A stretch of DNA of 64,000 bases from an uncultured Halanaerobiaceae bacterium (GCA_964630835.1 CAZVZM010000001.1:60151-124150), one strand, 5' to 3'; positions 11,482 through 28,432 are shown, numbered from the stretch's first letter. Notes: generated by a model from the sequence alone, not told the origin. Program-made: numbers and translations.

Positions 11482-11562
11482 GCAGGTGGCCAGAATACTA
11501 GAAAAAAACATTCGTTCATTTATTGCTGAAAATCAGATATAAATCCAAAGAAAAAATAAAAT

Positions 11563-11589
11563 GGGCTGCTGTATAAACTGCAGCAGCCC
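11563..11589. terminator. Hairpin between convergent pmbA and DUF1667-type gene, probably a bidirectional terminator
   Basis: GGGCTGCTG-9 nt-CAGCAGCCC perfect 9-bp stem, with an A-run before and T-rich sequence after. Confidence 0.65.
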
Positions 11590-11629
11590 GTGCTTATTTA
11601 ACCTTTCGGATTTTCCCGGCTGAGTAAAT

Positions 11630-12022
11630 TCAGGTGCTGCTCCTCACAGTTTTAGTGGCAATAATATCGGTATCCAGGCCGATAGGTTCAGATAAGATTG
11701 TATCGCCTTTGGAAATTGGTGCTTCAATAGATTTTTTGTTGAGAATTTCTATGACAGAGAAGAGCTTACTCCGGGGGATTTCATCCTCGCTTCTAACGCT
11801 TACCAGAGGTATCTTTCCATTTTCTACCTTCACATGATGTATCAGAGTTCTCTCTGGATTGAAAATTTCCTTACGCGTATAATCTCTACCTTCTTTACAT
11901 CTGGCTCCTTCCATGTTAATTGTTCTTTTGTCTGTATATGATGCTTCAATTTCACATCCCAGAGGACATTTAACACAGATAATCGTTTTTTTCGATAGGC
12001 TGCTGTAAGTCTTTTTATTCAT
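11630..12022 (-). CDS. DUF1667-type small Cys protein
   Basis: CVKCPLGCEI..GARCKEG..EIFNPER; typical third gene of the FAD-oxidoreductase trio. Confidence 0.75.
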   Translation of the reverse strand: MNKKTYSSLSKKTIICVKCPLGCEIEASYTDKRTINMEGARCKEGRDYTRKEIFNPERTLIHHVKVENGKIPLVSVRSEDEIPRSKLFSVIEILNKKSIEAPISKGDTILSEPIGLDTDIIATKTVRSST

Positions 12023-13274
12023 TTACAAACACCTGCACAGTTTCAGTGTTTTTTAATATTTTTTTGTTTGAATTTTCATCTTTATTGATTTTCACTTTTT
12101 CCATGCGGGAGGGATGCAGAGCTGGAAAACTTTTTTCGTTAATTATTTCTTTGCGGTTCTTTATTGATATCGCAGCACGAGTGAAGGGTTTTTCAGTTCG
12201 GAAAAATAATTCTGTTTCTTCACAAGCTTTTATAAGCTGGGGAATAACATAGTCTATTCCCTCTCCCGGTTCCACAAAAACATAATCTTTGTGGCCATCA
12301 GGATTATCTTTTAAATATTTTGCTGCAGATCTTCCTGCTCGAGCTGCCTCTGTAGAAACATAATCGACTATATCATGAATATGAAGGACATTTCCGGCGG
12401 CAAAAATCCCGGATATGTTTGTTTCCAGATTTTCTTTTACCAGAGGTCCGCCGGTAAGATTATCAAGGTGTATCCCTGCCTGGCGGGAGAGTTCATTTTC
12501 AGGAATCAGCCCGACGGAAAGCAGAAGAGTGTCGCAGTCCATTTTTTTTCTGGTAGAAGGAATGGGGTTTAAATCGTCATCAACCTTTGCACTTATCACA
12601 CCTTCTACTCTTGATTTTCCCAAAACTTCCACTGCGGTGTGATTTAGTTTTAGGGGAATATCAAAATCTTTCAGGCATTGATTTATATTTCGTGGCAGAC
12701 CGCTGGTGTAAGGCATTATCTCCAGAACCCCCTGCACTTCCACACCTTCAAGTGCCAATCGTCGAGCCATTATAAGGCCTATATCTCCGGATCCCAGAAT
12801 TACGGCCTTTTCCCCCACCATGATATTCTTCATATTAATCAGGTTTTGCACAAGTCCGGCTGTGTAGATTCCGGCAGGCCTTTCTCCGGCGATGGTGATG
12901 GCGCCTGCGGGCCTTTCTCTGCTGCCCATAGCCAGAATTACTGCAGCAGCATTAATTTTGCACATTCCTTTTTCCTCGTTGAAAGCTGTAATTGTTTTTT
13001 CTGAAGTTAATCCAGTTACAAGAGTGTTGAGCATACAGTCGATATTTCTCGATTTCATCTGATTTATATATCTGTCAGCGTATTCAGGCCCTGTGAGAGA
13101 TTGATCAAATTTTTGCAGGCCAAATCCATCATGGATACACTGTTTGAGTATGCCTCCCGGCTTATAATCCCTTTCGATTATAAGTATATCATCGATGCCG
13201 GCATCATGTGCAGAGATAGCTGCGGCCAATCCAGCTGGACCTCCTCCAATGATGACCAGCTCCCTATTTTCCAC
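12015..13274 (-). CDS. NAD(P)/FAD-dependent pyridine nucleotide-disulfide oxidoreductase (HcnB-like)
   Basis: IIGGGPAGLAAA, GGILKQCIHDGFG, TGPEYA, ILGSGDIGLIMARR and AGNVLHIHD motifs. Confidence 0.8.
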   Translation of the reverse strand: MENRELVIIGGGPAGLAAAISAHDAGIDDILIIERDYKPGGILKQCIHDGFGLQKFDQSLTGPEYADRYINQMKSRNIDCMLNTLVTGLTSEKTITAFNEEKGMCKINAAAVILAMGSRERPAGAITIAGERPAGIYTAGLVQNLINMKNIMVGEKAVILGSGDIGLIMARRLALEGVEVQGVLEIMPYTSGLPRNINQCLKDFDIPLKLNHTAVEVLGKSRVEGVISAKVDDDLNPIPSTRKKMDCDTLLLSVGLIPENELSRQAGIHLDNLTGGPLVKENLETNISGIFAAGNVLHIHDIVDYVSTEAARAGRSAAKYLKDNPDGHKDYVFVEPGEGIDYVIPQLIKACEETELFFRTEKPFTRAAISIKNRKEIINEKSFPALHPSRMEKVKINKDENSNKKILKNTETVQVFVNE

Positions 13275-14751
13275 GGCTGTTCACCTCTTTAACCGGTCCG
13301 GTAAACAAATATGAACTCTCCCTGTGAAGTTTTATGTCTGTTAGTTTTATTCCTTCTTCTCTCAATATTTGCACCACCTTTTCCAGGCAGTATCCTCCCT
13401 GACATCTACCCATAGTTATGCGGGTGCGGTTCTTGATAGCTCTTATTGTTCTGCTGCCCAGGGGATTACGCACTGCATCGAGTATTTCCTTTCTGGTTAC
13501 ATTTTCGCAGCGGCAGACAATATCTGCACTGGCGGGATTAACATCTGCCCTGTTACTTTTTTCTTCCGGACTGAGATCGTTAAAATATGGAGGACTGTCG
13601 CGATGTTCCTGAAAGGTTTTATCTTTTTTGAGGTTTTCTGCCTTATCCACCATATCCACCACGTATTCTGCAATTCCGGGGGCTGCAGTTAAGCCTGGAG
13701 ATTCAATGCCCAGCAGATTGATAAAATTATCGTGACGCGGGCTCTTTTTGATGACATAATCTGTGTATCCTCCGATTTCAGGAGGAACTATTTTGCTTCT
13801 GATGCCAGCATAGCTATTTATAATATCGCCGCGGGAGATTTCGGGAAGAAACTTTCTACCCTCTCTTATAAGGCGGTTCATAACATTTTTTGTGGTTGAA
13901 TGATCCTCTTTATTTTCAATGTACTCATCACTGGGTCCTATTAGTATATTGCCTTCAATTGTGGGGCTTAGATGAATGCCTCCTCCCCCTTTTTCGCGTG
14001 CTTCTTTTATCGGAGGGATAGGATATATTAGACGTGAAATCAGGTGGGATTTGTTTTTATCCAAAACGTGGTACTCGCCCCGGCAGGGGTATACTTTATA
14101 ATCGTTTTCTCCGGAAAAACTGGCAATTTTATCGGCATAAACCCCGGCAGAATTTATCACATAGCTGGCAGTGAACTTACGGTCAGCGGAGGAGAGGAGA
14201 AATATATTACCATTTTTTTCAATGCTTTTTATTTCGGAGTTGAGAAAAAGCTGCACTCCATTTTCTACAGCATTTTCTGCCAGAGCTATGGTCATTTCAA
14301 AGGGATTTACGATGGCACTGGTGGGAGAGTAAAGTGCGGCTTTACCTGGTGAAATGTTGGGCTCCATTTTCTTTATTTGATTTCTGCCGATGACTCCCAC
14401 CTCTGTGCCATTTTTTCTGCCAATATATTCAAACCTGTATAATTTAGGAATTCGATTTTTATTAAATGCCATCACAAGCTTTTCAGTTTCTTTAAAAGGA
14501 ATTGATAGTTTACTGCTTAATGATTTAATCTTTCTTTTTCCTCTCATATTGAGTTCTGCTTTCAGTGACCCCACGGGATAGCTAAAACCGGCGTGTATGA
14601 CACCGCTATTGCGGCTGCTGGCTCCTTCCCCTACATCTGCTTCCTTTTCCACCAGAGCTACATCGACTTTGAAACGGGAGAGTTCCCGAGCTATGGCGGC
14701 TCCAACTACACCGGCTCCAATGATTATGATATCAAATTTATTATTGTCCAT
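13264..14751 (-). CDS. FAD-dependent oxidoreductase, LhgO/GlpA (DAO) family, with C-terminal BFD-like [2Fe-2S] domain
   Basis: IIGAGVVG, SSRNSGVIHAG, GIESPGLTAAP, and C-terminal VCRCE..MGRCQGGYC. Confidence 0.8.
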   Translation of the reverse strand: MDNNKFDIIIIGAGVVGAAIARELSRFKVDVALVEKEADVGEGASSRNSGVIHAGFSYPVGSLKAELNMRGKRKIKSLSSKLSIPFKETEKLVMAFNKNRIPKLYRFEYIGRKNGTEVGVIGRNQIKKMEPNISPGKAALYSPTSAIVNPFEMTIALAENAVENGVQLFLNSEIKSIEKNGNIFLLSSADRKFTASYVINSAGVYADKIASFSGENDYKVYPCRGEYHVLDKNKSHLISRLIYPIPPIKEAREKGGGGIHLSPTIEGNILIGPSDEYIENKEDHSTTKNVMNRLIREGRKFLPEISRGDIINSYAGIRSKIVPPEIGGYTDYVIKKSPRHDNFINLLGIESPGLTAAPGIAEYVVDMVDKAENLKKDKTFQEHRDSPPYFNDLSPEEKSNRADVNPASADIVCRCENVTRKEILDAVRNPLGSRTIRAIKNRTRITMGRCQGGYCLEKVVQILREEGIKLTDIKLHRESSYLFTGPVKEVNSRGK

Positions 14752-14834
14752 AAAATACCTCCAAAAAATGATCGCCTCTAATAGTTCTTAATGTCTGGGA
14801 GAGTTCAGCTGTATGGAAACAAAAAGAGTTTACA

Positions 14835-16082
14835 TTATTTCATGCGGGGCAGAGTTGATATGCCAAAGGGAATAACCAGAACTTTTGCATCCCGTCCGAT
14901 ATCAGCAAGTGCTTCTTCAAGGGCAGAATTGACATCGCTGCAGCATCTAAAGAATAATTTTTCAGTGATGCTTTTAGGGAGAGAGGATACCAGTATTATT
15001 TCGCTGCTCTGATGAATATCTGCCACCCGGGAGGCTTTATGCCGGCCCAGAATAAATTCATTTTCAAGCTCTTCAATCAGCTCCTGTGGTGACTTATCAC
15101 CTGTAAGAGCTTCGGCAAAATTTTCTTCTCCCAGCCCATCTCCACACTCGCCCACAACAATCATTTTGCCTCCTTCTTTTACTGCTCTGGCTGCATGCTC
15201 CATTGATTTGTGAGTTTGATACAGGTCGATATCTTTGGGGAAACCGCCCGGAGAGGTAATTACTATATCTGCCTTTTCATCAATGCTTTTTTCGTATATT
15301 TCCTCAATATATTTTTTTCCCTGGCGATGAGCGGCTTCGATATCTCCGGAGACAATTTTGATAGTCTCTTTCTGCCTGTTGAGGACGGCATTTACAAGAA
15401 AGTCTACTCCTACCATATTTGCAATCTCTTCAATATCTTCGCGCACAGGGTTTCCCTCTATCTGGCCGCTTCTGGCCAGAGGATCCATGAACTGCTTATG
15501 ATTTTGCATGATTGTATTTTTGCTGCAAACACCCGGAGCGAGGGCTTTTGCGCCTCCGCTGAAGCCTGCAAAATAGTGATACTCAAGATTGCCGGTGGCT
15601 ACAATAAAGTCCGCATCCAGCACCTCTTTAAATACCTCCGCTTCTGTCCCACGACTGGTTATACCGATTTGTTCACATTGATACCTATCATGATCTATGC
15701 ATTTTATTCTGCTATATATTTCATCACCTACAAGCTTCTTTTTTTCTTCGGGAGTCTGTCTTCTGTGGACCCCCAGACCAAAAATAATTTTAATTTTGTC
15801 ATCGCTCACTCCTGAGGAGTTCAATCTATTAATGATGGGGGGGAGCATGACAGTGCTCGGGGCAGGTCGCGATATATCGCTGACCAGGATAACAACATTA
15901 TCCTCCGGGCTTACCAGCTCCTCAAGCTTTGCGCTTTCGATTGGAGCATCCAGGGACTTATTCACCTCTGCTTCTGGATTTGAGAGAGCCTCAGCTTCTT
16001 CAGGCATGATTTTCCCCTGAAAATTTTTATCGGGTATGTTTACAGTCAGCTTAGACCTGCCATACTTCAGTTTATTTTCCAC
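14835..16082 (-). CDS. larA: LarA-family nickel-pincer alpha-hydroxy-acid racemase/epimerase
   Basis: SDISRP, GLGVHR, HYFAGFSGGAK, NH and YQTHK motifs. Substrate unknown. Confidence 0.85.
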   Translation of the reverse strand: MENKLKYGRSKLTVNIPDKNFQGKIMPEEAEALSNPEAEVNKSLDAPIESAKLEELVSPEDNVVILVSDISRPAPSTVMLPPIINRLNSSGVSDDKIKIIFGLGVHRRQTPEEKKKLVGDEIYSRIKCIDHDRYQCEQIGITSRGTEAEVFKEVLDADFIVATGNLEYHYFAGFSGGAKALAPGVCSKNTIMQNHKQFMDPLARSGQIEGNPVREDIEEIANMVGVDFLVNAVLNRQKETIKIVSGDIEAAHRQGKKYIEEIYEKSIDEKADIVITSPGGFPKDIDLYQTHKSMEHAARAVKEGGKMIVVGECGDGLGEENFAEALTGDKSPQELIEELENEFILGRHKASRVADIHQSSEIILVSSLPKSITEKLFFRCCSDVNSALEEALADIGRDAKVLVIPFGISTLPRMK

Positions 16083-16123: not shown

Positions 16124-17086
16124 TTAATAAACAAGTTTGCCTTTTCTGACTATATCCCGATCATCTATTATAACCGAAGGTTTTTCTATCAGTCCATCGA
16201 GATGAATGCTGCTTTCTCTGCTGCCTCCCAGTGATATATTGTCACCAATGGCAAAGTGGACTGTGCCTCTTTTTTTCTTGTCTTCAGCCAGATTGCCAAT
16301 AAGGAGAGCGGCGGGATTTGTACCGATTGCAAATTCTGCAATGTTTGTGGCATTTTCATCAGCGTTATCCACTATATCTTTCAGCATATCAGCTTCTTTT
16401 CCTCCTTTTATCTCCTGAACCCGGCCCTCGCTGACTTCCAGAACTATATTATCTTCCAGGGCCCCTATATTGTCCATAGCGCAGTCGAAAACAATTCTTC
16501 CCTCAGCGGAGTCCTCAACAGGGCATGTAGGAGCTTCTCCCGGGGGAAGGGTGGCAAAACCGGTCTCCTTGTGAAAAAATCCATCGAGAGCAAAGGCTTC
16601 TCTGCCAGCAATGGAAAAGGTGACGTCTGTTCCCTGATTTGAGGTGACCCTGACTTTTTCCCCTTCAGTTATAATGCTCCGGACTTCGTCGGTGGTTTTC
16701 TTCAGTTCATCGAAGTCGGCGGTCAGAGCTCCTTCAATTAACATTTCCTCGGTGGTGCCTCTTAAAACCACTGTTTTGGTGCCCTCTTTAAAGGCATCCA
16801 GACGGGCATTAGTGTGAGTGATTGCGTATGTTGTCAGAGCAAAGACTGTGTCGGCCGTTTTCATGGCTTCTGCTACCATATTTCCGGGCTCATTTCCGTG
16901 TTCTTTCAGGAGTGGCATCACCATAAAGTAGGTCTCGCTGCTTATGTTTCTGGCTATGACTGAAAAGGAACGTCCTAGCTTATATTTTTTGGGGTCGGCC
17001 AGTATCAGGACATTATCCCCCTCTTCAACCCTGATGACATCTTCAATAATTTCTCTGATTTTTGGCGCCATTTCAAAATCAAGCAT
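16124..17086 (-). CDS. Peptidase M29/aminopeptidase T-like metalloprotein (short form)
   Basis: LPPGEAPTCP, AEFAIGTNP, EDKK..GTVHFAIGDN and S.IHLD motifs. Confidence 0.65.
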   Translation of the reverse strand: MLDFEMAPKIREIIEDVIRVEEGDNVLILADPKKYKLGRSFSVIARNISSETYFMVMPLLKEHGNEPGNMVAEAMKTADTVFALTTYAITHTNARLDAFKEGTKTVVLRGTTEEMLIEGALTADFDELKKTTDEVRSIITEGEKVRVTSNQGTDVTFSIAGREAFALDGFFHKETGFATLPPGEAPTCPVEDSAEGRIVFDCAMDNIGALEDNIVLEVSEGRVQEIKGGKEADMLKDIVDNADENATNIAEFAIGTNPAALLIGNLAEDKKKRGTVHFAIGDNISLGGSRESSIHLDGLIEKPSVIIDDRDIVRKGKLVY

Positions 17087-17146: not shown

Positions 17147-17914
17147 CTAATTCCTGTCCGCATTCTTTCCCGCTGTGGCAGCATACACGGCAAATTCTTT
17201 TCGGCCATCTATCTCAAGCAGGGAATCTATCTCCTCCTGGTCATAGGCGCCAATAGCACAGATGCCAGTATTGAGAGCTTCGCCAGCCAGATAGAGATTT
17301 TGACATATATGTCCAGCTTCCAGAGCAATCAATCTGGGTGAAAGCCTGCCATACCTCCACTCAGTTCGCCGGGGAAGAGAGGTCCAGACAAACACTGCGG
17401 CGCTATCGGGTATGAATTTTTGCTGATTAAAAGTCTCGCTGTGGCAGGCTTTTCCCATTATTTCAATGATTTTGTCCTCTTCATAAATTAAGGCCAGTTT
17501 ATTTCCTCGGGGAAGATATCTGTATATTCCGGGGTTTAAAGATTTTATTCTTCCGGCTGCCAGATAAGTTTCAAAGGGGTAACGAGCCCCTGCTGAAGGG
17601 GCAATTCGCTTTCTTTTTCCTTCTCCTTTCGTCCCCTGGGCGGCTGCAAGCATAAAAGAAAGCTCATCAATGTCTATATATTCATCGCTGTAATCTCTTC
17701 TGCTGCGGCGGCTCCAGAGCACTTCCTTTAAGTCCGAATTTATGGGAGAGATATCATCATGAGGAGGCAAATTTATGATATCGACTGCATCCTCACACGA
17801 TTTTTGGTACGGAGGAGGAGATAACCCCTGTTGCTGTTCTGTTTCCATCTCTTTAAGTTTGTCCCAGGGACCGGCTCGCAAAAATTCTCTGTGGCTTTTG
17901 TTATTTTTATGCAT
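17147..17914 (-). CDS. SagB/ThcOx-type nitroreductase-family flavoprotein
   Basis: RRSRRDY, APSAGARYPFETY and EAGHICQNLYL..GICAIGAY motifs. Start set at ATG 17914 after AGGAGG. Confidence 0.8.
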   Translation of the reverse strand: MHKNNKSHREFLRAGPWDKLKEMETEQQQGLSPPPYQKSCEDAVDIINLPPHDDISPINSDLKEVLWSRRSRRDYSDEYIDIDELSFMLAAAQGTKGEGKRKRIAPSAGARYPFETYLAAGRIKSLNPGIYRYLPRGNKLALIYEEDKIIEIMGKACHSETFNQQKFIPDSAAVFVWTSLPRRTEWRYGRLSPRLIALEAGHICQNLYLAGEALNTGICAIGAYDQEEIDSLLEIDGRKEFAVYAATAGKNADRN

Positions 17915-17993
17915 TTTATTTACCCTCCTCCTGAACTGAGCGGTAAAAAATTTAGTTTTTTCAAAAATCAATTTTAATATAACTATCCATCTT

Positions 17994-18794
17994 TTAAGAA
18001 GAGGATGAAATATCTTTTACTACCTGGTTGGAAAGAGTTCCAATTCCCTTAATTGTGATCTCAATTTCATCTCCATGCCTGAGATAGCGAGGGGGCTTTT
18101 GACCTTTTCCTACCCCGGGGGGAGTCCCGGTAGTGATAAGTGTACCGGGAAGCAGTGTCATCTGTCTGGAACAATAACTGATTATTTCATCATAGCTAAA
18201 AATCATATCTTCAGCTTCAGAGTTCTGTTTTAATTTGCCATTTAGATAGGATTTTATTGCGGCTGATTCCGGGTCTGCAGATGTTTCAATAAAAGGACCA
18301 AAGGGACAGAATGAATCAAAGGATTTAGCTCTGGCCCACTGCCCATCATTTTCCTGACAGTCGCGGGCTGTAACATCATTAACACAGGTATAGCCCAGAA
18401 TGTAGTCATCAGCTTCGCAGGGAGAAATATCTTTTGCTTTTTTGCCCATGACTATACCAAGCTCAGCTTCGTAATCAACACTGTCGGAAGCCTGTGGGGG
18501 GAGTTTTATGTCATCTTCCGGTCCAATAATGCTGCTGGTTGCTTTGAGAAATATCAGCGGCTTATCAGGGACCTGTTTTCCGGACTCCCTGGCGTGCTCA
18601 TGATAATTAAGCCCTATGGCAATTACATTGGGAGGATTAACGGGGGGAAGGAGTTTGACATCAGAAATATCCCATTTCCTTTCTGTGCAGGAAAAAGCAG
18701 AAAATATACTGCCTTTAATTTCTGTTATTATATTTCCATCCATTCTCCCCGTGAGTGCATCGTTCTCGCCGGTCATAAATTGGGCCAATTTCAT
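17994..18794 (-). CDS. Fumarylacetoacetate hydrolase-family protein
   Basis: IGLNYHEH, DYEAELG, GYTCVNDVTARD, AKSFDSFCP and TGTPPGVG motifs. Confidence 0.85.
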   Translation of the reverse strand: MKLAQFMTGENDALTGRMDGNIITEIKGSIFSAFSCTERKWDISDVKLLPPVNPPNVIAIGLNYHEHARESGKQVPDKPLIFLKATSSIIGPEDDIKLPPQASDSVDYEAELGIVMGKKAKDISPCEADDYILGYTCVNDVTARDCQENDGQWARAKSFDSFCPFGPFIETSADPESAAIKSYLNGKLKQNSEAEDMIFSYDEIISYCSRQMTLLPGTLITTGTPPGVGKGQKPPRYLRHGDEIEITIKGIGTLSNQVVKDISSSS

Positions 18795-18884: not shown

Positions 18885-20108
18885 TCAATATGTTTGCCTG
18901 GAGAATTTTTCTCGAAGTTCCCTATCATCCCGGGCCTCTCCAGCGCAACCTTCTTCCATGGCAGTTCGAGCTACGGCCAGAGCGACTTCACCTGTTACCC
19001 CTCTGCGGAGGGGAGGAGGAATGATTTTATCCGGAGAAGGGCTTTTCACCAGCTCTGCCAGGTTGCGTGCAGCGGAAAGTTTCATCTCCTGATTTATTTC
19101 TGAAGACCTTACCGAGATTGCTCCCCGCATCACACCGGGGAAAGCGAGAACGTTATTAATTTGATTTGGGTGATCGGATCTCCCCGTAGCCACCACACTG
19201 GCTCCTGCTTTTTTTGCCACACTGGGATCAATCTCCGGCTCGGGATTGGCGAGGGCAAAAATAATAGGATCATCGGCCATTTTATCAATCATGGCCCGGT
19301 CCAAAACACCACCTACCGAAAGGCCGATAAATATATCGGCATTTTTGACTGCTTTATTCAGACTTCCGGCAATATTCTTCGGGTTGGTTTTTGCAGCAAG
19401 TTTTTCCTTGGCCTCGTTCATACCGTCCTCTCTGCAGGAATGAATTATTCCCCTGCTGTCACAGATGATCAGATTTTCTCTCTCAATTCCTTTCTGTATT
19501 AGGAGATTGGCCGTGGCAGTAGCTGAGGCTCCGGCCCCATTGATTACTATTTTGCACGCAGTCAAATCTTTAGAAGTAACCTTTGTAGCATTATAAAGGC
19601 CTGCCAGTATAACAATGGCGGTTCCATGCTGATCATCATGGAAAATAGCCATTTCTGTTTCTTTTTTCAGTCTTTTCTCAATATAAAAACAGTCAGGTGC
19701 CGCTATATCTTCCAGATTCACTCCTGAAAAAACCGGCGAGAGAAGTTTGACGGTTTCAACGATTCTATCGGGATCTTCTGTGTCCAGACAAATTGGAAAA
19801 GCATCAAGGCCGGCAAATTTTTTAAAAAGCACCGCTTTCCCTTCCATAACGGGCAGGGATGCTCCGGCGCCGATATTTCCCAGCCCCAGCACAGCGGTGC
19901 CGGAAGAAACCACAGCTATCATGTTTCCCCGGGATGTATAGTCAAAAATTTTTTTTGAATCATCGGCAATTTTTCTGCAGGGCTCAGCTACTCCAGGAGA
20001 ATAAGCCAGACTGAGATCCTCCTCGCTATCGATCTCCACTTTGCTTTCTACTGACAGTTTGCCTTTATTTCTGGCGTGCAGGGCGAGCGCCTTTTCATAT
20101 ATATTCAT
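18885..20108 (-). CDS. NAD(P)-dependent malic enzyme
   Basis: GTAVLGLGNIG, VMEGKAVLFK, LEDI..P.CF, HDDQHGTA and ALANPEPEI motifs. Confidence 0.9.
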   Translation of the reverse strand: MNIYEKALALHARNKGKLSVESKVEIDSEEDLSLAYSPGVAEPCRKIADDSKKIFDYTSRGNMIAVVSSGTAVLGLGNIGAGASLPVMEGKAVLFKKFAGLDAFPICLDTEDPDRIVETVKLLSPVFSGVNLEDIAAPDCFYIEKRLKKETEMAIFHDDQHGTAIVILAGLYNATKVTSKDLTACKIVINGAGASATATANLLIQKGIERENLIICDSRGIIHSCREDGMNEAKEKLAAKTNPKNIAGSLNKAVKNADIFIGLSVGGVLDRAMIDKMADDPIIFALANPEPEIDPSVAKKAGASVVATGRSDHPNQINNVLAFPGVMRGAISVRSSEINQEMKLSAARNLAELVKSPSPDKIIPPPLRRGVTGEVALAVARTAMEEGCAGEARDDRELREKFSRQTY

Positions 20109-20123: not shown

Positions 20124-20834
20124 TTAATTATATATTTTAAAATTATCATTTATGATTTCACAGCCCAGTCTTTGCAGTTTTTTGTCAATCCAATCACGTT
20201 TAAGATTTCCATTTCTAATCTTTTTCAGCATCTGTTTTTCCTGATCCTGTTTGGATCTGGCTTTTGAAATGACTTCCTCCAGGTTATCTTTCTTAACAGC
20301 CACCACTCCATCGGCATCTCCAATAATTATATCTCCAGGATATATAATCTGGCCGGCACATGATATGGGGACGTTAATTTCTCCGGGGCCATTTTTATAG
20401 GGGCCCTGAGGGATGCAGCCTCTGGCATAAACTGCAACTGCAGCTTGATTTTGAATGTAATCCTTATCTCTGATCAATCCATCTAAAATAAATCCCTTAA
20501 CCGCTTTCTTTTCTGCCAGCCTGCACATTATCTCACCGATTATAGCTCTGTTATTTTCACCTCTTGCATCGACTGCAATGATGTCATTTTTGTCCGACAT
20601 TTCCAGGGCCTTATGCACCATTAGATTATCTGTGGCTGTTGTTTTTACGGTGAGTGCTCTTCCAGATACCTTTAGTTTATTTGCTCTATTGATAGGCATG
20701 ACTTCAGAAGCGAGACAGCCTGATCTATTCATGACATCGGATATAACAGCTGCAGGATATTGTGCCAGCTCCTTGATTTTATCGATGTCCGCTTTTTTCG
20801 GCTTATCATATATTCGAAAACCTATTTCGGACAA
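20124..20834 (-). CDS. RraA-family protein / 4-hydroxy-4-methyl-2-oxoglutarate aldolase-like
   Basis: ISDVM, DNLMVH, AIIGEIM, DGLIRD and PGDIIIGDADGVV motifs. Probable TTG start at 20834 (ORF track gives 20858). Confidence 0.8.
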   Translation of the reverse strand: MSEIGFRIYDKPKKADIDKIKELAQYPAAVISDVMNRSGCLASEVMPINRANKLKVSGRALTVKTTATDNLMVHKALEMSDKNDIIAVDARGENNRAIIGEIMCRLAEKKAVKGFILDGLIRDKDYIQNQAAVAVYARGCIPQGPYKNGPGEINVPISCAGQIIYPGDIIIGDADGVVAVKKDNLEEVISKARSKQDQEKQMLKKIRNGNLKRDWIDKKLQRLGCEIINDNFKIYN

Positions 20835-20900
20835 AATGCATCCCTCCCCGGGCCACAACCTGTATTAAAAAGATTAATAGGCAATAAAGCTCAGATCTAT

Positions 20901-21770
20901 TTAAAGCATATTCTGGACAAGATCAGGTATATCCGTCAGATCTTCTGCGATTTTAATTCCGGCTTCAGCAAGGACTTTTTTCTTATGCCCGGCTCCTCCT
21001 TCTCCACCAGGAGATACTATTGCTCCAGCATGTCCCATTCTTTTACCCTCCGGGGCAGCTTCTCCGGCTATGAGTGCGATGGCTTTTTTATTCATATTTT
21101 TGTCGATGTATTCGGCTGCTTTTTCTTCATCTCTGCCCCCGATTTCTCCCAGCAGAACTATAACTTCAGTCTGATCATCTTTTTCATAAAGGGGGAGAAG
21201 ATCTATAAAACTGGAACCCTGTATGGGGTCTCCACCAATTCCTACGACTGTTGACTGGCCTATTTCCCTGTTGGAAAGATTATTGGAGGTTTCGTAAGAG
21301 AGAGTGGCGCTGCGTGACATTACTCCCACCTTTCCCTGTTTATAGATGCTGCCGGACATAAATCCAACCTTTGATTTACCAGGGGAGATAACCCCGGGGG
21401 TATTGGGACCAATTAGAACGCAGTCGTGATAGCGGGCGTAATTATAGCAGTAAAGCATGTCCTGAAAGGGAACACCTTCTGCAACGGCTACCACCAGGTC
21501 GAGACCAGCGCTGACGGCTTCAATGATAGCATCTTTAGTATAGCGGGGGGGTACAAATAAAATGCTGGAGTTGGCTCCCGTTTCCATTTGAGCTTCTCTA
21601 ACAGTGTCATAAACGGGGATGCCACTCACCTCTTTGCCGCCTTTGCCGGGTGTGACCCCAGCCACCACCCGGGTGCCATATTCCTTCATCAGACGGGCGT
21701 GAAATTTTCCCTCTCTGCCGGTAATGCCCTGAACGATAAGTTTTGTGTTTTCATTAATCAGTATGCTCAA
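20901..21770 (-). CDS. sucD: Succinyl-CoA synthetase (ADP-forming acyl-CoA ligase) alpha subunit
   Basis: VQGITGREG.FH, IGPNTPG, GIGGDP and phospho-His motif MGHAGA. Probable TTG start at 21770. Confidence 0.85.
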   Translation of the reverse strand: MSILINENTKLIVQGITGREGKFHARLMKEYGTRVVAGVTPGKGGKEVSGIPVYDTVREAQMETGANSSILFVPPRYTKDAIIEAVSAGLDLVVAVAEGVPFQDMLYCYNYARYHDCVLIGPNTPGVISPGKSKVGFMSGSIYKQGKVGVMSRSATLSYETSNNLSNREIGQSTVVGIGGDPIQGSSFIDLLPLYEKDDQTEVIVLLGEIGGRDEEKAAEYIDKNMNKKAIALIAGEAAPEGKRMGHAGAIVSPGGEGGAGHKKKVLAEAGIKIAEDLTDIPDLVQNML

Positions 21771-22911
21771 CGATTTCACCTGCCTTCTGCAATTTGGAGG
21801 CCTTTTTAACGACCTTATCCAGTTTTGTGGATGCTTCCAGACCGGCATCCTGCAGTATTTTTATTCCCTTTTCTCTGTTTGTTCCCTGGAGTCGACATAC
21901 AATATCCAGTTCATCCGGTATATCCTGCAATGATTTTTTGACCCCGTTTGCAATTTCATTGCAGCGGGTTATTCCACCAAATATATTGAAGAGCACTGTC
22001 TCTGCATCTTCATCCTGCTTGACAACATTTACGGCTTTATTTACCTCTTCGGCAGTTGCTCCGCCGCCCAGATCAAGAATATTGGCTACATCGGTTTCGT
22101 GACGGCTGAGAAGATCGAGCGTGGTCAGGGCCAGACCTGCTCCATTGCTTATTATGGATACGGAGCCGTTGAGTTTAATAACGACAAATCCCGCCTGCCT
22201 GCCGATGAGTTCAAGAGGCTCCTCTTTATCCTCATCAAGCATGTCAACTATCTGTTCCTGGCGGTAGCTGGCATTATCATCTGCCTGAAGCTTGGCATCG
22301 AGAGCTAAAAGGTTATTATCATCCAGAAGGGCCAGGGGATTGATCTCCACAAGCAAACAATCGTATTTTTTGTAGACTCCGTACAATTTTTTTGCTATTT
22401 CCTCCAATTGTTCAGCAGATTTGCCCTCAAGCTCCGCCATATTGTGAATTTCATTGAAATGATGTCTATGGAGCCCTGTGAGAGGATCAATAGTCAGCCT
22501 CAATATCTTTTCAGGCTGTTTTTCTGCCACCTCTTCAATATCCATGCCTCCCGAGGAGCTAAAAATTAGCGTGGTTTCTTTCTCTTCGCGATTTAAGGTT
22601 ATCCCCAGATAAAATTCTCTCTCAATCTTTTGTTTTTTTTCCAGAAGAACCTGAGAAATTTTTTCACCTTTAAGTTCGCTGCCAAGCAGATCTTCGGTTT
22701 TATCCCTTGCTTCTTTTGGTGAAGAAACGAATTTTATCCCGCCGGCCTTACCCCTGCCGCCGGCGTGTACCTGGGATTTAACGGCTAAATCTGTCCCCAG
22801 CTCTTCACCTATGTCGGCTGCTTTTTCCGGAGTATCTGCCACCTGTCCACTCGGTATGTCAATTCCCTCATTGGCCAGTATTTTCTTTGCCTGATATTCA
22901 TATATTTTCAT
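21754..22911 (-). CDS. sucC: Succinyl-CoA synthetase beta subunit
   Basis: YEYQAK, KSQVHAGGRGKAGG, NGAGLA, NILDLGGG and NIFGGITRC motifs. Confidence 0.85.
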   Translation of the reverse strand: MKIYEYQAKKILANEGIDIPSGQVADTPEKAADIGEELGTDLAVKSQVHAGGRGKAGGIKFVSSPKEARDKTEDLLGSELKGEKISQVLLEKKQKIEREFYLGITLNREEKETTLIFSSSGGMDIEEVAEKQPEKILRLTIDPLTGLHRHHFNEIHNMAELEGKSAEQLEEIAKKLYGVYKKYDCLLVEINPLALLDDNNLLALDAKLQADDNASYRQEQIVDMLDEDKEEPLELIGRQAGFVVIKLNGSVSIISNGAGLALTTLDLLSRHETDVANILDLGGGATAEEVNKAVNVVKQDEDAETVLFNIFGGITRCNEIANGVKKSLQDIPDELDIVCRLQGTNREKGIKILQDAGLEASTKLDKVVKKASKLQKAGEIVEHTD

Positions 22912-22943: not shown

Positions 22944-23480
22944 TTAAATCAGACTTTTTCCCAGCTTGTATGCTTCATCGTTCATTTTTTCGGTGCCTTC
23001 AGGCACCATTTCAGAAATGGCCTCTTTCATTACATTATCTCCTGTAATGCCTATTACCTCATTCATCATGCCTATTGCTGCAATATTGGTAGGAAGTGTT
23101 GTGCCCAGCTCTTCTTCCACACTTATAGTGAGAGGAGCCTTATATATATCATTGGATATAATATCTTCGGGTATATTTTTTACTTTGAATGAATCAATGA
23201 TTACAGTAGAATCCTCTTTTAACTCCCCGTAGTAATTATCGCAGGCTTCCTGTGATAGAACTACGAATATGTCAGGGATGTGCACAGAGAGATCAAAAAT
23301 TTTGTCGGGGCTTATAACAACCTCTCCCCGGCAGGCTCCACCGCGAGCTTCTATACCATGTGATTCTCCCTGTACAACGTTGTAGCCGTCCTTCATACAG
23401 GCTTCAGCAATAATTATGCTGGCCAGAACCAGTCCCTGTCCACCTGTGCCGCTGAATCTTACCTCCAGTCTGTCATCCAT
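22944..23480 (-). CDS. 2-oxoacid:ferredoxin oxidoreductase gamma subunit (Kor-like)
   Basis: FSGTGGQGLVLA and EARGG motifs. Confidence 0.85.
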   Translation of the reverse strand: MDDRLEVRFSGTGGQGLVLASIIIAEACMKDGYNVVQGESHGIEARGGACRGEVVISPDKIFDLSVHIPDIFVVLSQEACDNYYGELKEDSTVIIDSFKVKNIPEDIISNDIYKAPLTISVEEELGTTLPTNIAAIGMMNEVIGITGDNVMKEAISEMVPEGTEKMNDEAYKLGKSLI

Positions 23481-24295
23481 TATTTGTCACCCTCTTTAAA
23501 GTTTGTTATTCTGTCATATTCGTCAATGAATTCCGGTCTATCCTCTTTGTATAATACTCCACGGGGCACTTTGTTTTTCTGGTCTTCAGGAGGGAGGTTT
23601 TCGGCCTGTTTTTTGCTAATAGTTATCTCCTTGAGTGTTTTCAGAAGTTCAGCAGCATCATTATAATTGTTTCGGCGGCCGTATTGAGTTGGGCAGGTTG
23701 TAAGAACTTCTACCACGGAAAAACCTTTATGATCTATTGCCTTTGAAAATAAATCGGGCAGCTCTTTGACATAATAAGCATCTCCGCGGCCGAAGAAGCT
23801 TGCTCCGGCTCCGATGACCAGCTCTTCTATATTTACATCCGGCTCCACCATGCCAAAGGGAGCCGTGGAGGCTTTATCGCCCTTCTGAGTGGTGGGTGCA
23901 TACTGTCCTCCCGTCATTCCGTATATTTGATTGTTGGCAATTATTGCTGTGAGATTAATATTGCGGCGTGCAGCATGCACCAGGTGATTGCCTCCTATTG
24001 CGGTTGCGTCACCATCTCCCATAAATACAATCACGTTGAGTTCCGGACGGGACATTTTAAGTCCTGTGGCATAACTTAATGCTCTACCATGGGGAGTGCG
24101 CAGGGAGGGAAAGTCCATATATGTGGGCAGTTTACCGGCACAGCCAATAGCGCAGACCATTGCAGTCTTGTTTTGATTAAGTCCCAGGTCATCTATTGCC
24201 CTGATAAGTGACTGCCAGGCTGTGCCATGTGTGCAACCCGGACAAATGAATGTGGGCATTATGTCTGTCCGCAAATATCTATCCAGCTTACTCAT
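23480..24295 (-). CDS. 2-oxoacid:ferredoxin oxidoreductase beta subunit (ThDP-binding)
   Basis: CPGCTHG, IGCAG, HGRAL and GDGD..IGGNHL..NNQIYGMTGGQ motifs. Confidence 0.88.
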   Translation of the reverse strand: MSKLDRYLRTDIMPTFICPGCTHGTAWQSLIRAIDDLGLNQNKTAMVCAIGCAGKLPTYMDFPSLRTPHGRALSYATGLKMSRPELNVIVFMGDGDATAIGGNHLVHAARRNINLTAIIANNQIYGMTGGQYAPTTQKGDKASTAPFGMVEPDVNIEELVIGAGASFFGRGDAYYVKELPDLFSKAIDHKGFSVVEVLTTCPTQYGRRNNYNDAAELLKTLKEITISKKQAENLPPEDQKNKVPRGVLYKEDRPEFIDEYDRITNFKEGDK

Positions 24296-24305: not shown

Positions 24306-25436
24306 CTAATTAATTTCCTTGATTTTTTTCAGCAGTTCCTGCATGGTTATATCTCGACTGGAAACCTTGTTATGCTGAATTACCTCCGCCCGACCTTCCA
24401 CTGCCTGTCTGGTCAGACCTGCAACCTGTCCTAAATTCATTTCAGATACGATTATCTTATCCACTCTTTTTGCTGTTTTTAATAATTCTTTTTCGGGAAA
24501 AGGCCAGATAGTGAGAGGTCTTATCAGCTCTACATTTATGCCCTCTTCCTGGGCCTTTTTTACAGCTCCCTGGGCGGGTCTGGTTGTTGATCCAAAGGCA
24601 AGCAGAGCAATGTCAGGATTCTGGCATGTTATTCTCTCCACCTCAACAATATCATCATAGTACTTATCCAGCTTTGAATTTATTCTTTTTACACACTCAT
24701 CGATGATATCCTCATCCAGATCAGGGATCCCGTTTTCACCATGGATCATTCCCGATATATTGTATCTGTATTCCCCGCCAAAGGGCGGCAATACTGGGAT
24801 TTCACTCTCATCTACTTCATATGGCAGATATTCTTCGGGTGGACCTCCATCTACCTTTCTATCAATGATCTCCAGAGACTCTTTGTCGGGCAGTGTCACG
24901 CTCTCTCTCATATGAGCAAGAGACTGATCACTCAATATTACCACTGGCACCATATATTTTTCTGCCAGATTAAAGGCTCTGATGGTTTCTGTGTAAGACT
25001 CTTTAACCGTCCCGGGCATGACAGCTATTCGGGGGCTATCTCCGTGAGAACCCCAGCGAGCCTGTAAAATATCTGCCTGGTGAGTTTTGGTGGCACCACC
25101 GGTGCTGGGACCCACGCGCTGGGCGCTGTAGATCACAATTGGAAGCTCGACCATGGCTGCATATCCCAGATTTTCCTGCTTGAGACTCATACCCGGACCA
25201 CTGGTTATAGTTATAGCCTTGCTTCCACCCGCGGAAGCTCCGATTACGGCCCCGATGCTTCCTAATTCATCTTCCATTTGAATGAAGCGTCCACCCCGTG
25301 AGGGTAATTTTTCTGCCAGCACCTCCATAGCTCCGGAGGAAGGGGTTATGGGATAACCGGCGCAAAATTTCACCCCTGCTGTCAGAGCTCCTTCAGCAAC
25401 TGCTTGATTTCCCTGCATTAAAACTGTTTTACTCAT
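24306..25436 (-). CDS. 2-oxoacid:ferredoxin oxidoreductase alpha subunit
   Basis: GNQAVAEG, YPITPSS, QMEDELGS, TSGPG and QRVGPSTG motifs. ATG 25436 follows AGAGGTG. Confidence 0.88.
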   Translation of the reverse strand: MSKTVLMQGNQAVAEGALTAGVKFCAGYPITPSSGAMEVLAEKLPSRGGRFIQMEDELGSIGAVIGASAGGSKAITITSGPGMSLKQENLGYAAMVELPIVIYSAQRVGPSTGGATKTHQADILQARWGSHGDSPRIAVMPGTVKESYTETIRAFNLAEKYMVPVVILSDQSLAHMRESVTLPDKESLEIIDRKVDGGPPEEYLPYEVDESEIPVLPPFGGEYRYNISGMIHGENGIPDLDEDIIDECVKRINSKLDKYYDDIVEVERITCQNPDIALLAFGSTTRPAQGAVKKAQEEGINVELIRPLTIWPFPEKELLKTAKRVDKIIVSEMNLGQVAGLTRQAVEGRAEVIQHNKVSSRDITMQELLKKIKEIN

Positions 25437-25629
25437 GATTTTCACCTCTTATTTCTATGGCTAAATCCGGGCACCTTAATTCACATAGCGAGCACTCCGT
25501 GCATTTTTCCTCATCTGCGATCCTGGGTCTGCCTTTCTTATCCAACTCCAGAACGTCTGTGGGACAAAATTCAACACAAATAGCACATTTCTTGCACCAT
25601 CTTCTATCAATTGTAATCCGGGCTGTCAT
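25429..25629 (-). CDS. 2x[4Fe-4S] ferredoxin, delta subunit of the oxidoreductase
   Basis: CKKCAICVEFCP and CTECSLCELRCP. Confidence 0.85.
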   Translation of the reverse strand: MTARITIDRRWCKKCAICVEFCPTDVLELDKKGRPRIADEEKCTECSLCELRCPDLAIEIRGENHE

Positions 25630-25744: not shown

Positions 25745-26443
25745 TTAATCTGTTTCCGGCTGAAAACTGTCATCCCATCGTTCGATAATTAATTCTCTGG
25801 ACTTCTCAATATGTTCCTCCATAATTCTGCCGGCTTTTTCCTGATTGCCGTTGACAATAGCATTGACAATCATTCTGTGCTCCTCAACAGCTTCATGATG
25901 GCGAGAAGTATAAATAGCCAGGAGAGAGGCGAGAAAAGTGGTGAGATGGGAAATGCCATCGTATATATCTTTAAGCTGGCTGTTATGGCTTGCTTTGATG
26001 ATTGTCTCATGCAGCTCTTTGTGAGTTATTTTATACTGATCCAGATCTTCTTCCGGGCTGTTCTCAAGCAAATTTTCAATTTTATTTTGTAGCCCCTGTA
26101 ATTTATTTTTGTTTTCTCTATCAATTCTTTTTGCAGCCAGCCGACAGCCAAAGCTCTCCAGTGCAATTCTGGTTTCGTAAATATCTCCAACCTCCTTTTC
26201 CGAGAATTCTCTGATTTTATAACCCCGGTAGGGAATTTTTTCTATAATCCCCTGATTTTCCAGCATGTTGAGAGCTTCTCTGATGGGAGTATTGCTCACT
26301 CCAAGCTCATCAGAAATTTCATTGATTGGGAGAGATTCCCCAGGAGACATCTGTCCGGTGACTATTGTTTCAAGAAGTATGTCAAAGACCGCTTCTCCCA
26401 GTTGATTTTTGCCAGGAAAGGAAAAATTCATATCATCAACCAT
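25745..26443 (-). CDS. GntR-family (FadR/FCD) transcriptional regulator
   Basis: wHTH LGVSNTPIREAL followed by an FCD-like domain (HETII..SHN, EH..IV.AI). Confidence 0.85.
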   Translation of the reverse strand: MVDDMNFSFPGKNQLGEAVFDILLETIVTGQMSPGESLPINEISDELGVSNTPIREALNMLENQGIIEKIPYRGYKIREFSEKEVGDIYETRIALESFGCRLAAKRIDRENKNKLQGLQNKIENLLENSPEEDLDQYKITHKELHETIIKASHNSQLKDIYDGISHLTTFLASLLAIYTSRHHEAVEEHRMIVNAIVNGNQEKAGRIMEEHIEKSRELIIERWDDSFQPETD

Positions 26444-26934: not shown

Positions 26935-27651
26935 ATGAAAATTGATCAGGAAAAATGCGTGGCCTGTGAAAATTGCCTTCCCTACTGTCCTGCTGAAGCA
27001 ATAAAAGCTGGAGAGGACAGGGTAAAAGTTGATGAGGAGTTGTGTTTTGAATGTGGCGTATGCAGCAGAGTGGAGGCCTGTCCCACCGATGCTTTTTATG
27101 AGCCGGATTACGTTTTTGAACATCCCCGATCTGTAAGAAAGGCTTTCAGTGATCCTTCAGTGGATCATTCGGAAACGAACATGCCCGGGCGAGGCACTGA
27201 AGAAGTAAAAACCAATGATGTGACCAATAGAGTCGAAAAAGGTTATGTAGGAATAGGCCTGGAAATGGGAAGACCTTCAGTGGGAACCACCGTAAAAGAG
27301 GTGGAAAAGGCTACAAAAGCTCTTGCGGAAAATGGTTTCAGCAACTTTGAAGAGTGCAATCCAGTTTTTGCTTTAATGAAAAATCCTGAGACCGGTGAGA
27401 TGAAGGAAGATGTGCTGGAAGAAAGACTTTTATCTGCTATAATAGAGCTCGATATTCCCGAAGATGAACTGGAAAAGTGTTTCAAGGTAGTTAAGGAGAT
27501 TGCAGATAAGATTGATACAGTTTTCACCATGGATTTAATATCCTGTTATGATGAAGATATGAAGCTAAGAGTTGAAGAAATGCTTGATGAATCCAGCTTT
27601 GAAGCCAGACCAAATGCCAAAATAAACATTGGAGTGGGAAAAGCAGAATAA
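26935..27651 (+). CDS. Uncharacterised protein with N-terminal 2x[4Fe-4S] domain
   Basis: CVACENCLPYCP and CFECGVCSRVEACP, then GRGTEEVKTNDVT..EMGRP in a C-terminal domain I cannot assign. AGGAG RBS. Confidence 0.75.
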   Translation: MKIDQEKCVACENCLPYCPAEAIKAGEDRVKVDEELCFECGVCSRVEACPTDAFYEPDYVFEHPRSVRKAFSDPSVDHSETNMPGRGTEEVKTNDVTNRVEKGYVGIGLEMGRPSVGTTVKEVEKATKALAENGFSNFEECNPVFALMKNPETGEMKEDVLEERLLSAIIELDIPEDELEKCFKVVKEIADKIDTVFTMDLISCYDEDMKLRVEEMLDESSFEARPNAKINIGVGKAE

Positions 27652-27666
27652 TAAGGAGGTAAAATA

Positions 27667-28305: not shown

Positions 28306-28306
28306 A

Positions 28307-28432
28307 TTTTTGATATCTTCTCCGTAATTACTGGTGAAATTTACGAGATATGCCTGTAAAACGATAGTTGCTCACTTCCTATTATAGGAAGCTATGAGTC
28401 GAAGTGATACTCGAAGTTTTTCAAAGCCCGAG
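28307..28432. repeat. Dispersed composite repeat, copy B
   Basis: 28307-28380 is the reverse complement of the 35775-35842 module. A CTTCC-TATTATA-GGAAG junction follows, then GGAAGCTATGAGTCGAAGTGATACTCGAAGTTTTTC, matching 53811 onward. Confidence 0.75.

Follow-up and report, generated by a model that had tools for sequence, protein, structure and literature searches.

A FngABC-like gene trio beside a LarA-type racemase in a Halanaerobiaceae genome: a probable 2-hydroxy-dicarboxylate dehydrogenase in a carboxylate gene cluster

The window analysed here, a stretch of 64,000 nucleotides from an uncultured Halanaerobiaceae bacterium (GCA_964630835.1, CAZVZM010000001.1:60151-124150), contains a gene for a LarA-type racemase followed by three redox genes with the layout of the FngABC enzyme of Pyrococcus furiosus. 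According to the open reading frame (ORF) calls, all on the minus strand, the larA homologue occupies 14835-16082 and the trio 11630-14751, and the gap between them (14752-14834) is exactly the 83 nt given in the first-pass annotation. The trio consists of an FngA-like FAD dehydrogenase with a C-terminal BFD [2Fe-2S] domain (A subunit, 13264-14751; Pfam DAO and Fer2_BFD), an FngB-like FAD/NAD(H) oxidoreductase of the pyridine-nucleotide-disulfide type (B subunit, 12015-13274; Pfam Pyr_redox_2) and an FngC-like protein with a predicted [4Fe-4S] cluster (C subunit, 11630-12022; Pfam DUF1667, four invariant Cys), and these genes overlap by 11 nt and 8 nt. They close an arm of 16 genes on one strand, which runs from a GntR/FCD-family regulator gene at its head (25745-26443; Pfam GntR, FCD) at 26443 down to the DUF1667 gene at 11630 with intergenic gaps of at most 115 nt. 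All four subunit genes of a 2-oxoacid:ferredoxin oxidoreductase (Kor) are present in the arm, namely korD (25429-25629), encoding a ferredoxin-type delta subunit of 66 aa with two 4Fe-4S CxxCxxCxxxCP motifs and overlapping the korA start, korA (24306-25445), korB (23480-24295) and korG (22944-23480), and the Kor block 22944-25445 matches the Pfam domains POR_N, TPP_enzyme_C and POR. They are followed by the genes for the ADP-forming succinate-CoA ligase, sucC (21754-22911; NCBIfam SucC model 423 bits, cut-off 370) and sucD (20901-21848; SucD model 394 bits, cut-off 336). The trio, Kor and SucCD therefore do lie within one transcription arm, on the same strand after GntR, as had been noted from the sequence.

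The same gene trio was described from P. furiosus in October 2026 as FngABC, an electron-bifurcating enzyme which catalyzes glycerol-3-phosphate (G3P) + 2 NAD+ + 2 reduced ferredoxin = dihydroxyacetone phosphate (DHAP) + 2 NADH + 2 oxidized ferredoxin (PMC13689815). FngABC represents a fifth, evolutionarily independent electron-bifurcating family with G3P as the sole proven substrate; many of its homologues are not beside glycerol genes and polyols were proposed for these, and the paper makes no mention of malate, 2-hydroxyglutarate or LarA (PMC13689815). The window trio has this layout in three adjacent genes. At the sequence level, the BFD domain of the A subunit carries four Cys for the [2Fe-2S] cluster, which are invariant also in the glpK-linked paralogue and in distant members of the clade, and the C subunit carries CxxCxxxC...C, four Cys for a [4Fe-4S] cluster that are invariant across the clades. 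In the B subunit, the dinucleotide motifs for FAD and NAD(H), GGGPAG and GSGDIGLIMARR, are likewise invariant. The invariance of these cofactor motifs indicates that the electron-transfer architecture of FngABC is retained, and by analogy we infer electron bifurcation in the window paralogue.

The genome (2.34 Mb, 152 contigs, 93% complete) encodes a second trio of DAO/BFD, Pyr_redox_2 and DUF1667 proteins on contig C3 (5617-10846), directly downstream of a glpK whose glycerol kinase product scores 706 bits on TIGR01311, and this trio is the canonical glycerol-type FngABC copy of the genome. A further glpK is found on contig C12. The window was said to lack both a glycerol kinase and a glycerol facilitator, and indeed both glpK genes are on C3 and C12, and no MIP/GlpF family gene was found in the whole genome at its 93% completeness. 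The identity between the window trio and the glpK-linked trio is 36% for A, 52% for B and 37% for C. None of the NCBIfam cut-offs is passed by the window A subunit, which scores 280 bits on the type 2 G3P oxidase model (cut-off 460), 219 on LhgO (299) and 151 on GlpA (553). The LhgO model (NF008726) gives 219-245 bits for A subunits of the window type, with the highest value for the G061 orthologue, and 161 for the glpK-linked copy. Identity with the anaerobic GlpABC enzyme was rejected, since GlpA TIGR03377 gave only 151 bits against its cut-off of 553 and the partner subunits are of the FngB/C type. With a glpK-linked copy on another contig and a different substrate site, the window trio is related to the glycerol enzyme as a paralogue and is not that enzyme itself, which agrees with the doubt cast on that annotation at first pass.

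The substrate site of the A subunit could be compared with two studied enzymes. In L-2-hydroxyglutarate dehydrogenase (L2HGDH) of Drosophila, the C1 carboxylate of the substrate is bound by Ser88, Tyr289 and His302, the C2 oxygen by His92 and the distal carboxylate by Arg393 (PMC10726252), and the equivalents in the Plasmodium malate:quinone oxidoreductase (PfMQO) are His123, Tyr330, His343 and Arg446 (PMC11097338). In the alignment the window A subunit has S49, H53, Y243, H260 and R318, that is, all five contact side chains of L2HGDH. The pattern S/T-H-Y-H-R is shared by the window protein, E. coli LhgD and all 120 of the 120 closest database homologues (48-59% identity), whereas the glpK-linked copies have Phe and Leu/Val at the Tyr and His positions in 13 of 13 cases (own genome and 12 from the same class), so that the split between the Tyr/His and the Phe/Leu-Val proteins is complete. 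The glycerophosphate oxidase of Mycoplasma (MpGlpO) aligns with Phe and Ile at these positions. A quick maximum-likelihood tree with SH-aLRT supports recovered the glpK-linked clade (96) and the Tyr/His clade (91), and nested in the latter were the window group (100), an Atribacterota/TA06 group (100) and an archaeal group (99). Members of the Tyr/His clade gave BLASTP scores of 128-162 bits to E. coli LhgD, 75-110 to GlpA and at most 31 to Mqo, and their local motif xLIYPIP...G[IV]HL[ST] is almost the same as that of LhgD. Both the five contacts and these scores support the earlier placement of the A subunit with LhgO/LhgD. An alignment-based AlphaFold2 model of the subunit (pLDDT 89) had MpGlpO (TM-score 0.91), Bp3253 and L2HGDH (0.80) as its nearest solved folds in Foldseek; the range of 0.80-0.91 is narrow, and the fold ranking therefore does not decide the substrate. 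Because the Tyr/His pair occurs in all 120 homologues and Phe with Leu/Val in the 13 glpK-linked copies, the Tyr/His trio is probably a 2-hydroxy-dicarboxylate dehydrogenase of the FngABC family rather than a G3P enzyme, set in a conserved carboxylate-catabolic cluster. Apart from these, one divergent and long-branched trio A subunit (L052, G032:C1:3710232-3711677), which is not glpK-linked, reads S-H-Y-H-Q with Gln for the distal Arg, and its substrate may have no second carboxylate.

The gene neighbourhood was compared in a class sample of 102 genomes. An A-subunit orthologue was found in nine of them, the window's genome and eight others (55-57% identity) from three families, and in none of 16 further genomes from the family to which the window belongs. 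All nine carriers also have a LarA orthologue (56-67% identity), which occurs in two further genomes, 11 in total, and the genes lie in one cluster wherever the contigs allow, so that the grouping exceeds chance. The order in related clusters, where contigs allow, is AraC, trio, TctCBA, KorDABG, SucCD, LarAH, Usp, malic enzyme and a second LarA paralogue, with LarAH beginning about 15 nt after SucD and the korD homologues preceding korA. Genome G026 shows the order TctA, Ldh_2, aldehyde:ferredoxin oxidoreductase, trio, LarAH, KorD, and a metagenome contig (59% identity) the order KorDABG-SucCD-LarAH6-Usp-malic enzyme-trio. Contigs of Atribacterota (51%) and TA06 (49%) carry GntR/FCD-trio-SucCD-KorDABG and then an aminotransferase like aspartate aminotransferase (AspAT), with a 2-hydroxyacid dehydrogenase like phosphoglycerate dehydrogenase (PGDH) before the contig end in Atribacterota, and a GntR/FCD gene is directly upstream of the trio in six of six Atribacteria-like loci. 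In Synergistia-like genomes, Atribacterota and TA06, the Tyr/His orthologues are thus accompanied by KorDABG and SucCD, by a gene of the LarA superfamily and by either a GntR regulator or a carboxylate transporter, and the conserved core, consisting of the trio, KorDABG, SucCD, a LarA-superfamily gene and a regulator or transporter, is found in three phylum-level lineages. The loci of the class orthologues had only carboxylate-type neighbours in tblastn screens, and no glycerol gene was present at the 14 Tyr/His-clade loci looked up. Among 20 trios of the Phe/Leu-Val type, none adjoined Kor, SucCD, LarA or malic enzyme and 12 adjoined glpK; the trio of P. thermosuccinogenes is also glycerol-linked (PMC7282089).

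The Tyr/His clade is widespread, including Synergistia-like bacteria, Atribacterota, TA06, Altiarchaeales and others. Some of its further trios have only a GntR/FCD gene, or TRAP transporters (tripartite ATP-independent periplasmic) with 5-oxoprolinase genes, or no informative neighbours. On three Altiarchaeales contigs (L032, L037, L039) the Tyr/His trio sits between the class I fumarase beta and alpha genes, on the opposite strand, and this block is flanked by genes for 5-enolpyruvylshikimate-3-phosphate (EPSP) synthase and chorismate synthase. Several other genes were also observed at these loci. The last gene of related clusters, after malic enzyme, is another LarA paralogue with about 33% identity (L013:18185-19531, L015, L016 and L023 in G061, G073, G031 and G029); this paralogue shows an H-P-F loop together with G-H-H-R as its motif, stays under every NCBIfam cut-off, apparently lacks the equivalent of the catalytic Lys298 (LYHV-SAM), and may be an isomerase of a different reaction or substrate. 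An aldehyde:ferredoxin oxidoreductase gene occurs in or near related clusters at L010:1813-3531 (G026, between Ldh_2 and the trio) and L018:17391-19283 (G086). In Atribacterota an isomerase of group 22 of the nickel-pincer nucleotide (NPN) enzymes (L033:10140-11393; NF052515, 520 bits) follows Kor and the AspAT-like gene, and in TA06 a gene of about 414 aa with only a weak DUF362 match, cut by the contig end, is in the same place (L038:14502-14808). The published group 22 rows are without D72 and K298, and the Atribacterota cluster is a candidate metabolic context for these isomerases.

The window LarA homologue (Pfam Lar_N, LarA_C) scores 546 bits on NF052593, the LarAH6 malate-racemase equivalog (cut-off 500), and 452 bits against Mar2 (PDB 6D6Z; E 2e-134, residues 3-413), and it remains under the cut-off of the lactate-racemase model (367 bits, cut-off 460). 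It retains all the catalytic and NPN-binding residues (LarA D72, R75, H108, H174, K184, H200 and K298) in the motifs DISRP, GVHRR, YHYF, GGAKAL, QNH, THK and GRHK, which were compared with the Dataset S2 rows. The known 2-hydroxyglutarate racemases are LarAH7a, LarAH11 and Hgr, and their N-Q-T motif (helix alpha-14; signature Y, F, H/Q, T) is missing from the window protein, which has in its place G-x-H-K, the motif found in malate racemases. The H-Y-F loop of the window protein is the common state of group 6, and the H-Y-K of Mar2 is the exception; the residue before the catalytic Lys is His for Gln throughout the window LarA subclade and in none of the 20 sampled group 6 rows. Mar2 racemises malate with a Km of 0.38 mM and showed no 2-hydroxyglutarate activity (Desguin et al. 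2020), and the published neighbours of LarAH group 6 include malic enzyme (15%) and the FAH family COG0179 (12%) (Desguin, Table S1). The window homologue is accordingly predicted to be a malate racemase, with no shifted specificity indicated by its sequence, and the role of 2-hydroxyglutarate racemase given to it in the first-pass annotation is not supported. Genes for NPN biosynthesis were found above cut-off, with LarB and LarC on contig C16 and LarE on contig C63. The genome has two other LarA paralogues as well, one LarAH5-like (C3:21779-24230; 419 bits, cut-off 462) by a galactarate-dehydratase-like gene and a GntR regulator, and one true LarA-type copy with the lactate racemase signature on contig C21.

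As for Kor, its alpha subunit passes the generic 2-oxoacid model PRK08659 (475 bits, cut-off 411) and reaches 379 bits on the 2-oxoglutarate-specific model (cut-off 579), and its beta subunit has 2-oxoglutarate:ferredoxin oxidoreductase beta as the best match (268 bits, cut-off 364). The adjacency to SucCD supports 2-oxoglutarate as the Kor substrate. With korD, a gene shorter than the usual ORF length threshold, Kor has four subunits. The longest ORF for SucD shares 95 nt with SucC and its family match starts only at residue 28, and the true start is probably an internal codon near 21770. SucCD was also considered as a malate-CoA ligase working with the CitE-like lyase and provisionally rejected, with 335 bits on that model against a cut-off of 604, whereas both succinate-CoA ligase models are passed. 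The genome yielded no Sdh/Frd flavoprotein, therefore the C5 branch would end at succinate, and a reductive operation of the arm, synthesizing 2-oxoglutarate, is for the same reason unlikely in this genome. Contig C18 (357-19137) carries, close together, another SucCD pair, another malic enzyme and a class I fumarase.

The remaining genes of the arm, identified by Pfam and NCBIfam, encode an RraA-like protein of the aldolase/oxaloacetate-decarboxylase family (20124-20858), malic enzyme (18885-20108), an FAH-family protein (17994-18794), a SagB-type nitroreductase (17147-17971) and an M29-like protein (16124-17086), all on the minus strand. Malic enzyme is kept in related clusters and the RraA-like and FAH genes are not, and the SagB-type and M29-like genes, with no homologues in related loci, are specific to the window's version of the cluster. 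Beyond the last stop codon, a GC-rich hairpin between convergent gene ends (11561-11591), with its T-run on the minus strand, is the probable terminator of the arm. The divergent arm on the plus strand (26935-35281, Pfam) encodes an Fe-S protein pair, TctC-TctB-TctA, an Ldh_2-family dehydrogenase, a class V aminotransferase and a CitE-like lyase; TctCBA lies within related clusters, while Ldh_2 recurs in G026 and the class V aminotransferase in locus L030. The G+C content of this two-armed island (about 11600-35300) is 0.38-0.45 and that of its flanks 0.46-0.50, and its key genes have no orthologue in five same-genus and 11 further same-family genomes. In the same-genus genomes the genes flanking the island sit on separate contigs, as seen in a synteny check of its borders. 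The arm may be a horizontally acquired island, because its G+C is lower than that of the flanks and it is missing from the five same-genus genomes.

The chain first proposed for this locus led from 2-hydroxyglutarate (2-HG) to succinate and ATP, and the FngABC bifurcation would add to it a ferredoxin loop with Kor. Taking the trio as an FngABC member, with its A subunit and its ferredoxin/NAD bifurcation, we infer the substrate, the direction and the ferredoxin loop as follows. The acid would be taken up by TctABC of the divergent arm under control of the GntR/FCD regulator. The A subunit, with its LhgD-like carboxylate site, would oxidize the L-2-hydroxy-dicarboxylate at its FAD, and its [2Fe-2S] cluster would relay the electrons to the FAD of the B subunit, which would also be fed by reduced ferredoxin through the [4Fe-4S] cluster of DUF1667, with two NAD+ being reduced. 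With 2-HG this step would read 2-HG + 2 NAD+ + 2 reduced ferredoxin -> 2-oxoglutarate + 2 NADH + 2 oxidized ferredoxin; KorDABG would then convert 2-oxoglutarate to succinyl-CoA and CO2 and return the two reduced ferredoxins, and SucCD would yield succinate and ATP. The net reaction would be 2-HG + 2 NAD+ + ADP + Pi = succinate + CO2 + 2 NADH + ATP. The nickel racemase could convert the D-form to the L-form; the other option, suggested by its sequence, is a role in a parallel branch from D-malate through L-malate to pyruvate with malic enzyme.

We favour L-2-HG, feeding the Kor/SucCD route, as the substrate of the trio, with a rough probability of 0.38, because the core then forms a linear chain in which the product of the trio is the substrate of Kor, because Kor would reduce the very ferredoxin on which an FngABC-type enzyme depends, and because SucC and SucD pass their cut-offs, the A subunit is LhgD-like and not Mqo-like, and succinate would be an end product in a genome where no Sdh/Frd was found. 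Of the chain proposed at first pass, the link of trio, Kor and SucCD is kept in the three lineages, as such a chain predicts, but the racemase is of the malate type and malate is about as likely a substrate. Several observations weigh against 2-HG: the adjoining racemase is LarAH6 with GxHK and not N-Q-T; both Kor alpha and beta stay under the 2-oxoglutarate-specific cut-offs and the A subunit under that of LhgO (219 against 299 bits); the malic enzyme conserved in the Synergistia-type clusters would be unused; the Altiarchaeales trios of the same clade are placed between fumarase subunit genes; and three Tyr/His-clade trios, which give no functional hint, stand alone among unrelated genes. 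Moreover, the Tyr/His/Arg residues are common to MQO (PfMQO Y330, H343 and R446; PMC11097338) and therefore cannot separate malate from 2-HG. The trio could be a ferredoxin- and NAD-coupled L-malate dehydrogenase, which we tentatively place close to the 2-HG assignment. LarAH6 would equilibrate D- and L-malate taken up by TctABC and the trio would form oxaloacetate using ferredoxin reduced by KorDABG, as L-malate oxidation (E0' about -170 mV, close to the G3P/DHAP couple) is uphill with NAD+ alone. Oxaloacetate would be decarboxylated by the RraA-like or FAH-family enzymes, with malic enzyme as a parallel exit to pyruvate, or else be transaminated with glutamate, the resulting 2-oxoglutarate going through Kor and SucCD to succinate and ATP. 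This agrees with the position of the LarAH6 racemase adjoining the trio in the window, and of its orthologue directly after the trio in G026, with the two genes of oxaloacetate-decarboxylase families in the window's arm, with the malic enzyme of the related clusters and the malic enzyme and FAH neighbours published for group 6, and with the AspAT-like gene after Kor in Atribacterota and TA06. However, malic enzyme allows malate catabolism without any malate dehydrogenase (MDH), the link to Kor and SucCD would be indirect, through ferredoxin or a transaminase that is missing from most clusters, and the overall sequence and local motif are LhgD-like, with at most 31 bits to Mqo. The fumarase linkage on the three archaeal contigs points to malate, but this synteny may not be functional because the EPSP and chorismate synthase genes are included, and Altiarchaeota are reported to have Mdh. 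An Ldh_1-type MDH was not found in the window's genome nor in seven of the nine trio carriers, which as a sign that the trio replaces this enzyme is weak and confounded by phylogeny: the occurrence of MDH (two of nine carriers against 54 of 93 others) follows phylogeny, none of 16 own-family genomes has MDH and 15 of the 16 are without the trio. Both the window and G026 also encode an Ldh_2-family candidate malate dehydrogenase.

A less likely explanation is that the trio oxidizes some other 2-hydroxy-carboxylate. Tartrate, 2-hydroxyadipate, glycerate and lactate are examples, as is an acid stemming from a larger N-containing substrate on which the products of the M29-like, SagB-type, aminotransferase and CitE-like genes would act; Kor, SucCD, malic enzyme and the racemase would then work further down a pathway not yet recognisable. 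The island genes left unexplained (SagB-type, M29-like, the Fe-S pair, Ldh_2, class V aminotransferase and CitE-like) and the odd-site LarA paralogue, group 22 isomerase and aldehyde:ferredoxin oxidoreductase of related clusters are in line with such an acid, malate-racemase (MAR)-type enzymes also epimerise tartrate, and the TTT (tripartite tricarboxylate) and TRAP transporters are broad. But the conserved core is small while the extra genes vary between lineages, and the five L2HGDH/MQO contacts, including the Arg for the distal carboxylate, best fit a C4-C5 dicarboxylate. It is very improbable that the trio is an ordinary FngABC G3P:NAD+/ferredoxin oxidoreductase whose position by larA, Kor and SucCD is accidental. 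Such an enzyme would account for the type 2 glycerol-3-phosphate oxidase model being the best NCBIfam match, for MpGlpO being the best fold match (TM-score 0.91) and for the homologues being named glycerol-3-phosphate dehydrogenase in their sources, but the 280 bits are far under the cut-off of 460, the genome already has a dedicated copy linked to glpK, and the residue split between the separate clades is perfect (120 against 13). The missing glycerol genes at the 14 loci, the carboxylate-type neighbours of the class orthologues and the recurrence of this clustering in three lineages also speak against G3P.

The FngABC family (2026), LarAH6, Kor and SucCD are already known. What is new is the distinct Tyr/His clade of FngA with its carboxylate site and the repeated grouping of its trio with Kor/SucCD and with isomerases of the nickel-pincer type, seen in no fewer than three phylum-level lineages, and a ferredoxin-looped oxidation of hydroxy-dicarboxylates is put forward here as a new hypothesis. 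Our literature search turned up no description of an FngABC acting on a substrate other than G3P, nor of a 2-hydroxyglutarate or malate dehydrogenase that bifurcates. The odds seem slightly better than even that the broad clade labelled G3P dehydrogenase is a new substrate class of FngABC, a ferredoxin-dependent NAD+:L-2-hydroxy-dicarboxylate oxidoreductase, serving either to gain ATP from D/L-2-HG or as an energy-coupled MDH. If so, a closed ferredoxin loop with Kor and SucCD, fed by a nickel-pincer racemase, would give strict anaerobes ATP from D/L-2-HG. The cluster offers a concrete case for a whole FngABC clade acting on 2-hydroxy-dicarboxylic acids, and the two-residue signature (Tyr/His against Phe/Leu-Val) could re-annotate thousands of "glycerol-3-phosphate dehydrogenase" genes; UniProt contains more than 5,000 FngA homologues. 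Were 2-HG the substrate, this widespread metabolite would gain its first route that is anaerobic, needs no quinone and yields ATP, and the nickel racemase would find a place in energy metabolism; were it malate, an energy-coupled malate dehydrogenase would solve the well-known uphill step from malate to oxaloacetate in anaerobes. Either substrate would bear on the ferredoxin/NADH balance in fermenters and syntrophs.

As compared to FngABC of P. furiosus, the window trio has the same three-gene architecture and the same cofactor motifs, its B subunit shares 52% identity with the glpK-linked counterpart in its own genome, and in the proposed energetics a donor of about -170 to -190 mV together with reduced ferredoxin reduces NAD+; it differs in having no glycerol genes nearby, in an A subunit of a separate clade with Tyr/His of the LhgD type for Phe/Leu-Val, and in its neighbours, which are Kor, SucCD, the nickel racemase, malic enzyme and carboxylate transporters. 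With LhgD/LhgO of E. coli and L2HGDH of Drosophila (PDB 8W75, 8W78) the A subunit shares all five contacts (Ser, His, Tyr, His, Arg), with LhgD a near-identical local motif and 128 bits, and with L2HGDH/LhgD the fold of its model (TM-score 0.80). Unlike them, it stays below the NCBIfam cut-off (219 against 299), has the extra BFD [2Fe-2S] domain, is partnered with FngB/C-like subunits instead of quinone or membrane, and falls phylogenetically inside the FngA radiation. Mqo has the catalytic His, the Tyr/His carboxylate pair and the distal Arg in common with the A subunit (PMC11097338) and also oxidizes an L-2-hydroxy-dicarboxylate, but the matches to E. coli Mqo are fragmentary only, at most 31 bits, and Mqo is membrane- and quinone-linked, without an Fe-S domain or partner subunits. 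The window LarA homologue resembles Mar2 of Thermoanaerobacterium thermosaccharolyticum (PDB 6D6Z) in passing the LarAH6 equivalog and in keeping the residues and GxHK, and shares malic enzyme and FAH-family neighbours with its group; it differs by the H-Y-F loop for H-Y-K and by His for Gln before the catalytic Lys, and the tight coupling of LarAH6 to SucD and an FngABC-type trio was not previously described. The proposed route resembles that of LctBCD, a lactate dehydrogenase (LDH) with EtfAB, and pyruvate:ferredoxin oxidoreductase (PFOR) in Acetobacterium woodii, in that reduced ferredoxin would drive an uphill oxidation of a 2-hydroxyacid with NAD+ and would be formed again by the enzyme that follows, a 2-oxoacid:ferredoxin oxidoreductase, although LctBCD is built from unrelated proteins (GlcD-type LDH and EtfAB), acts on a monocarboxylate and leads to ATP via acetyl-CoA, not succinyl-CoA.

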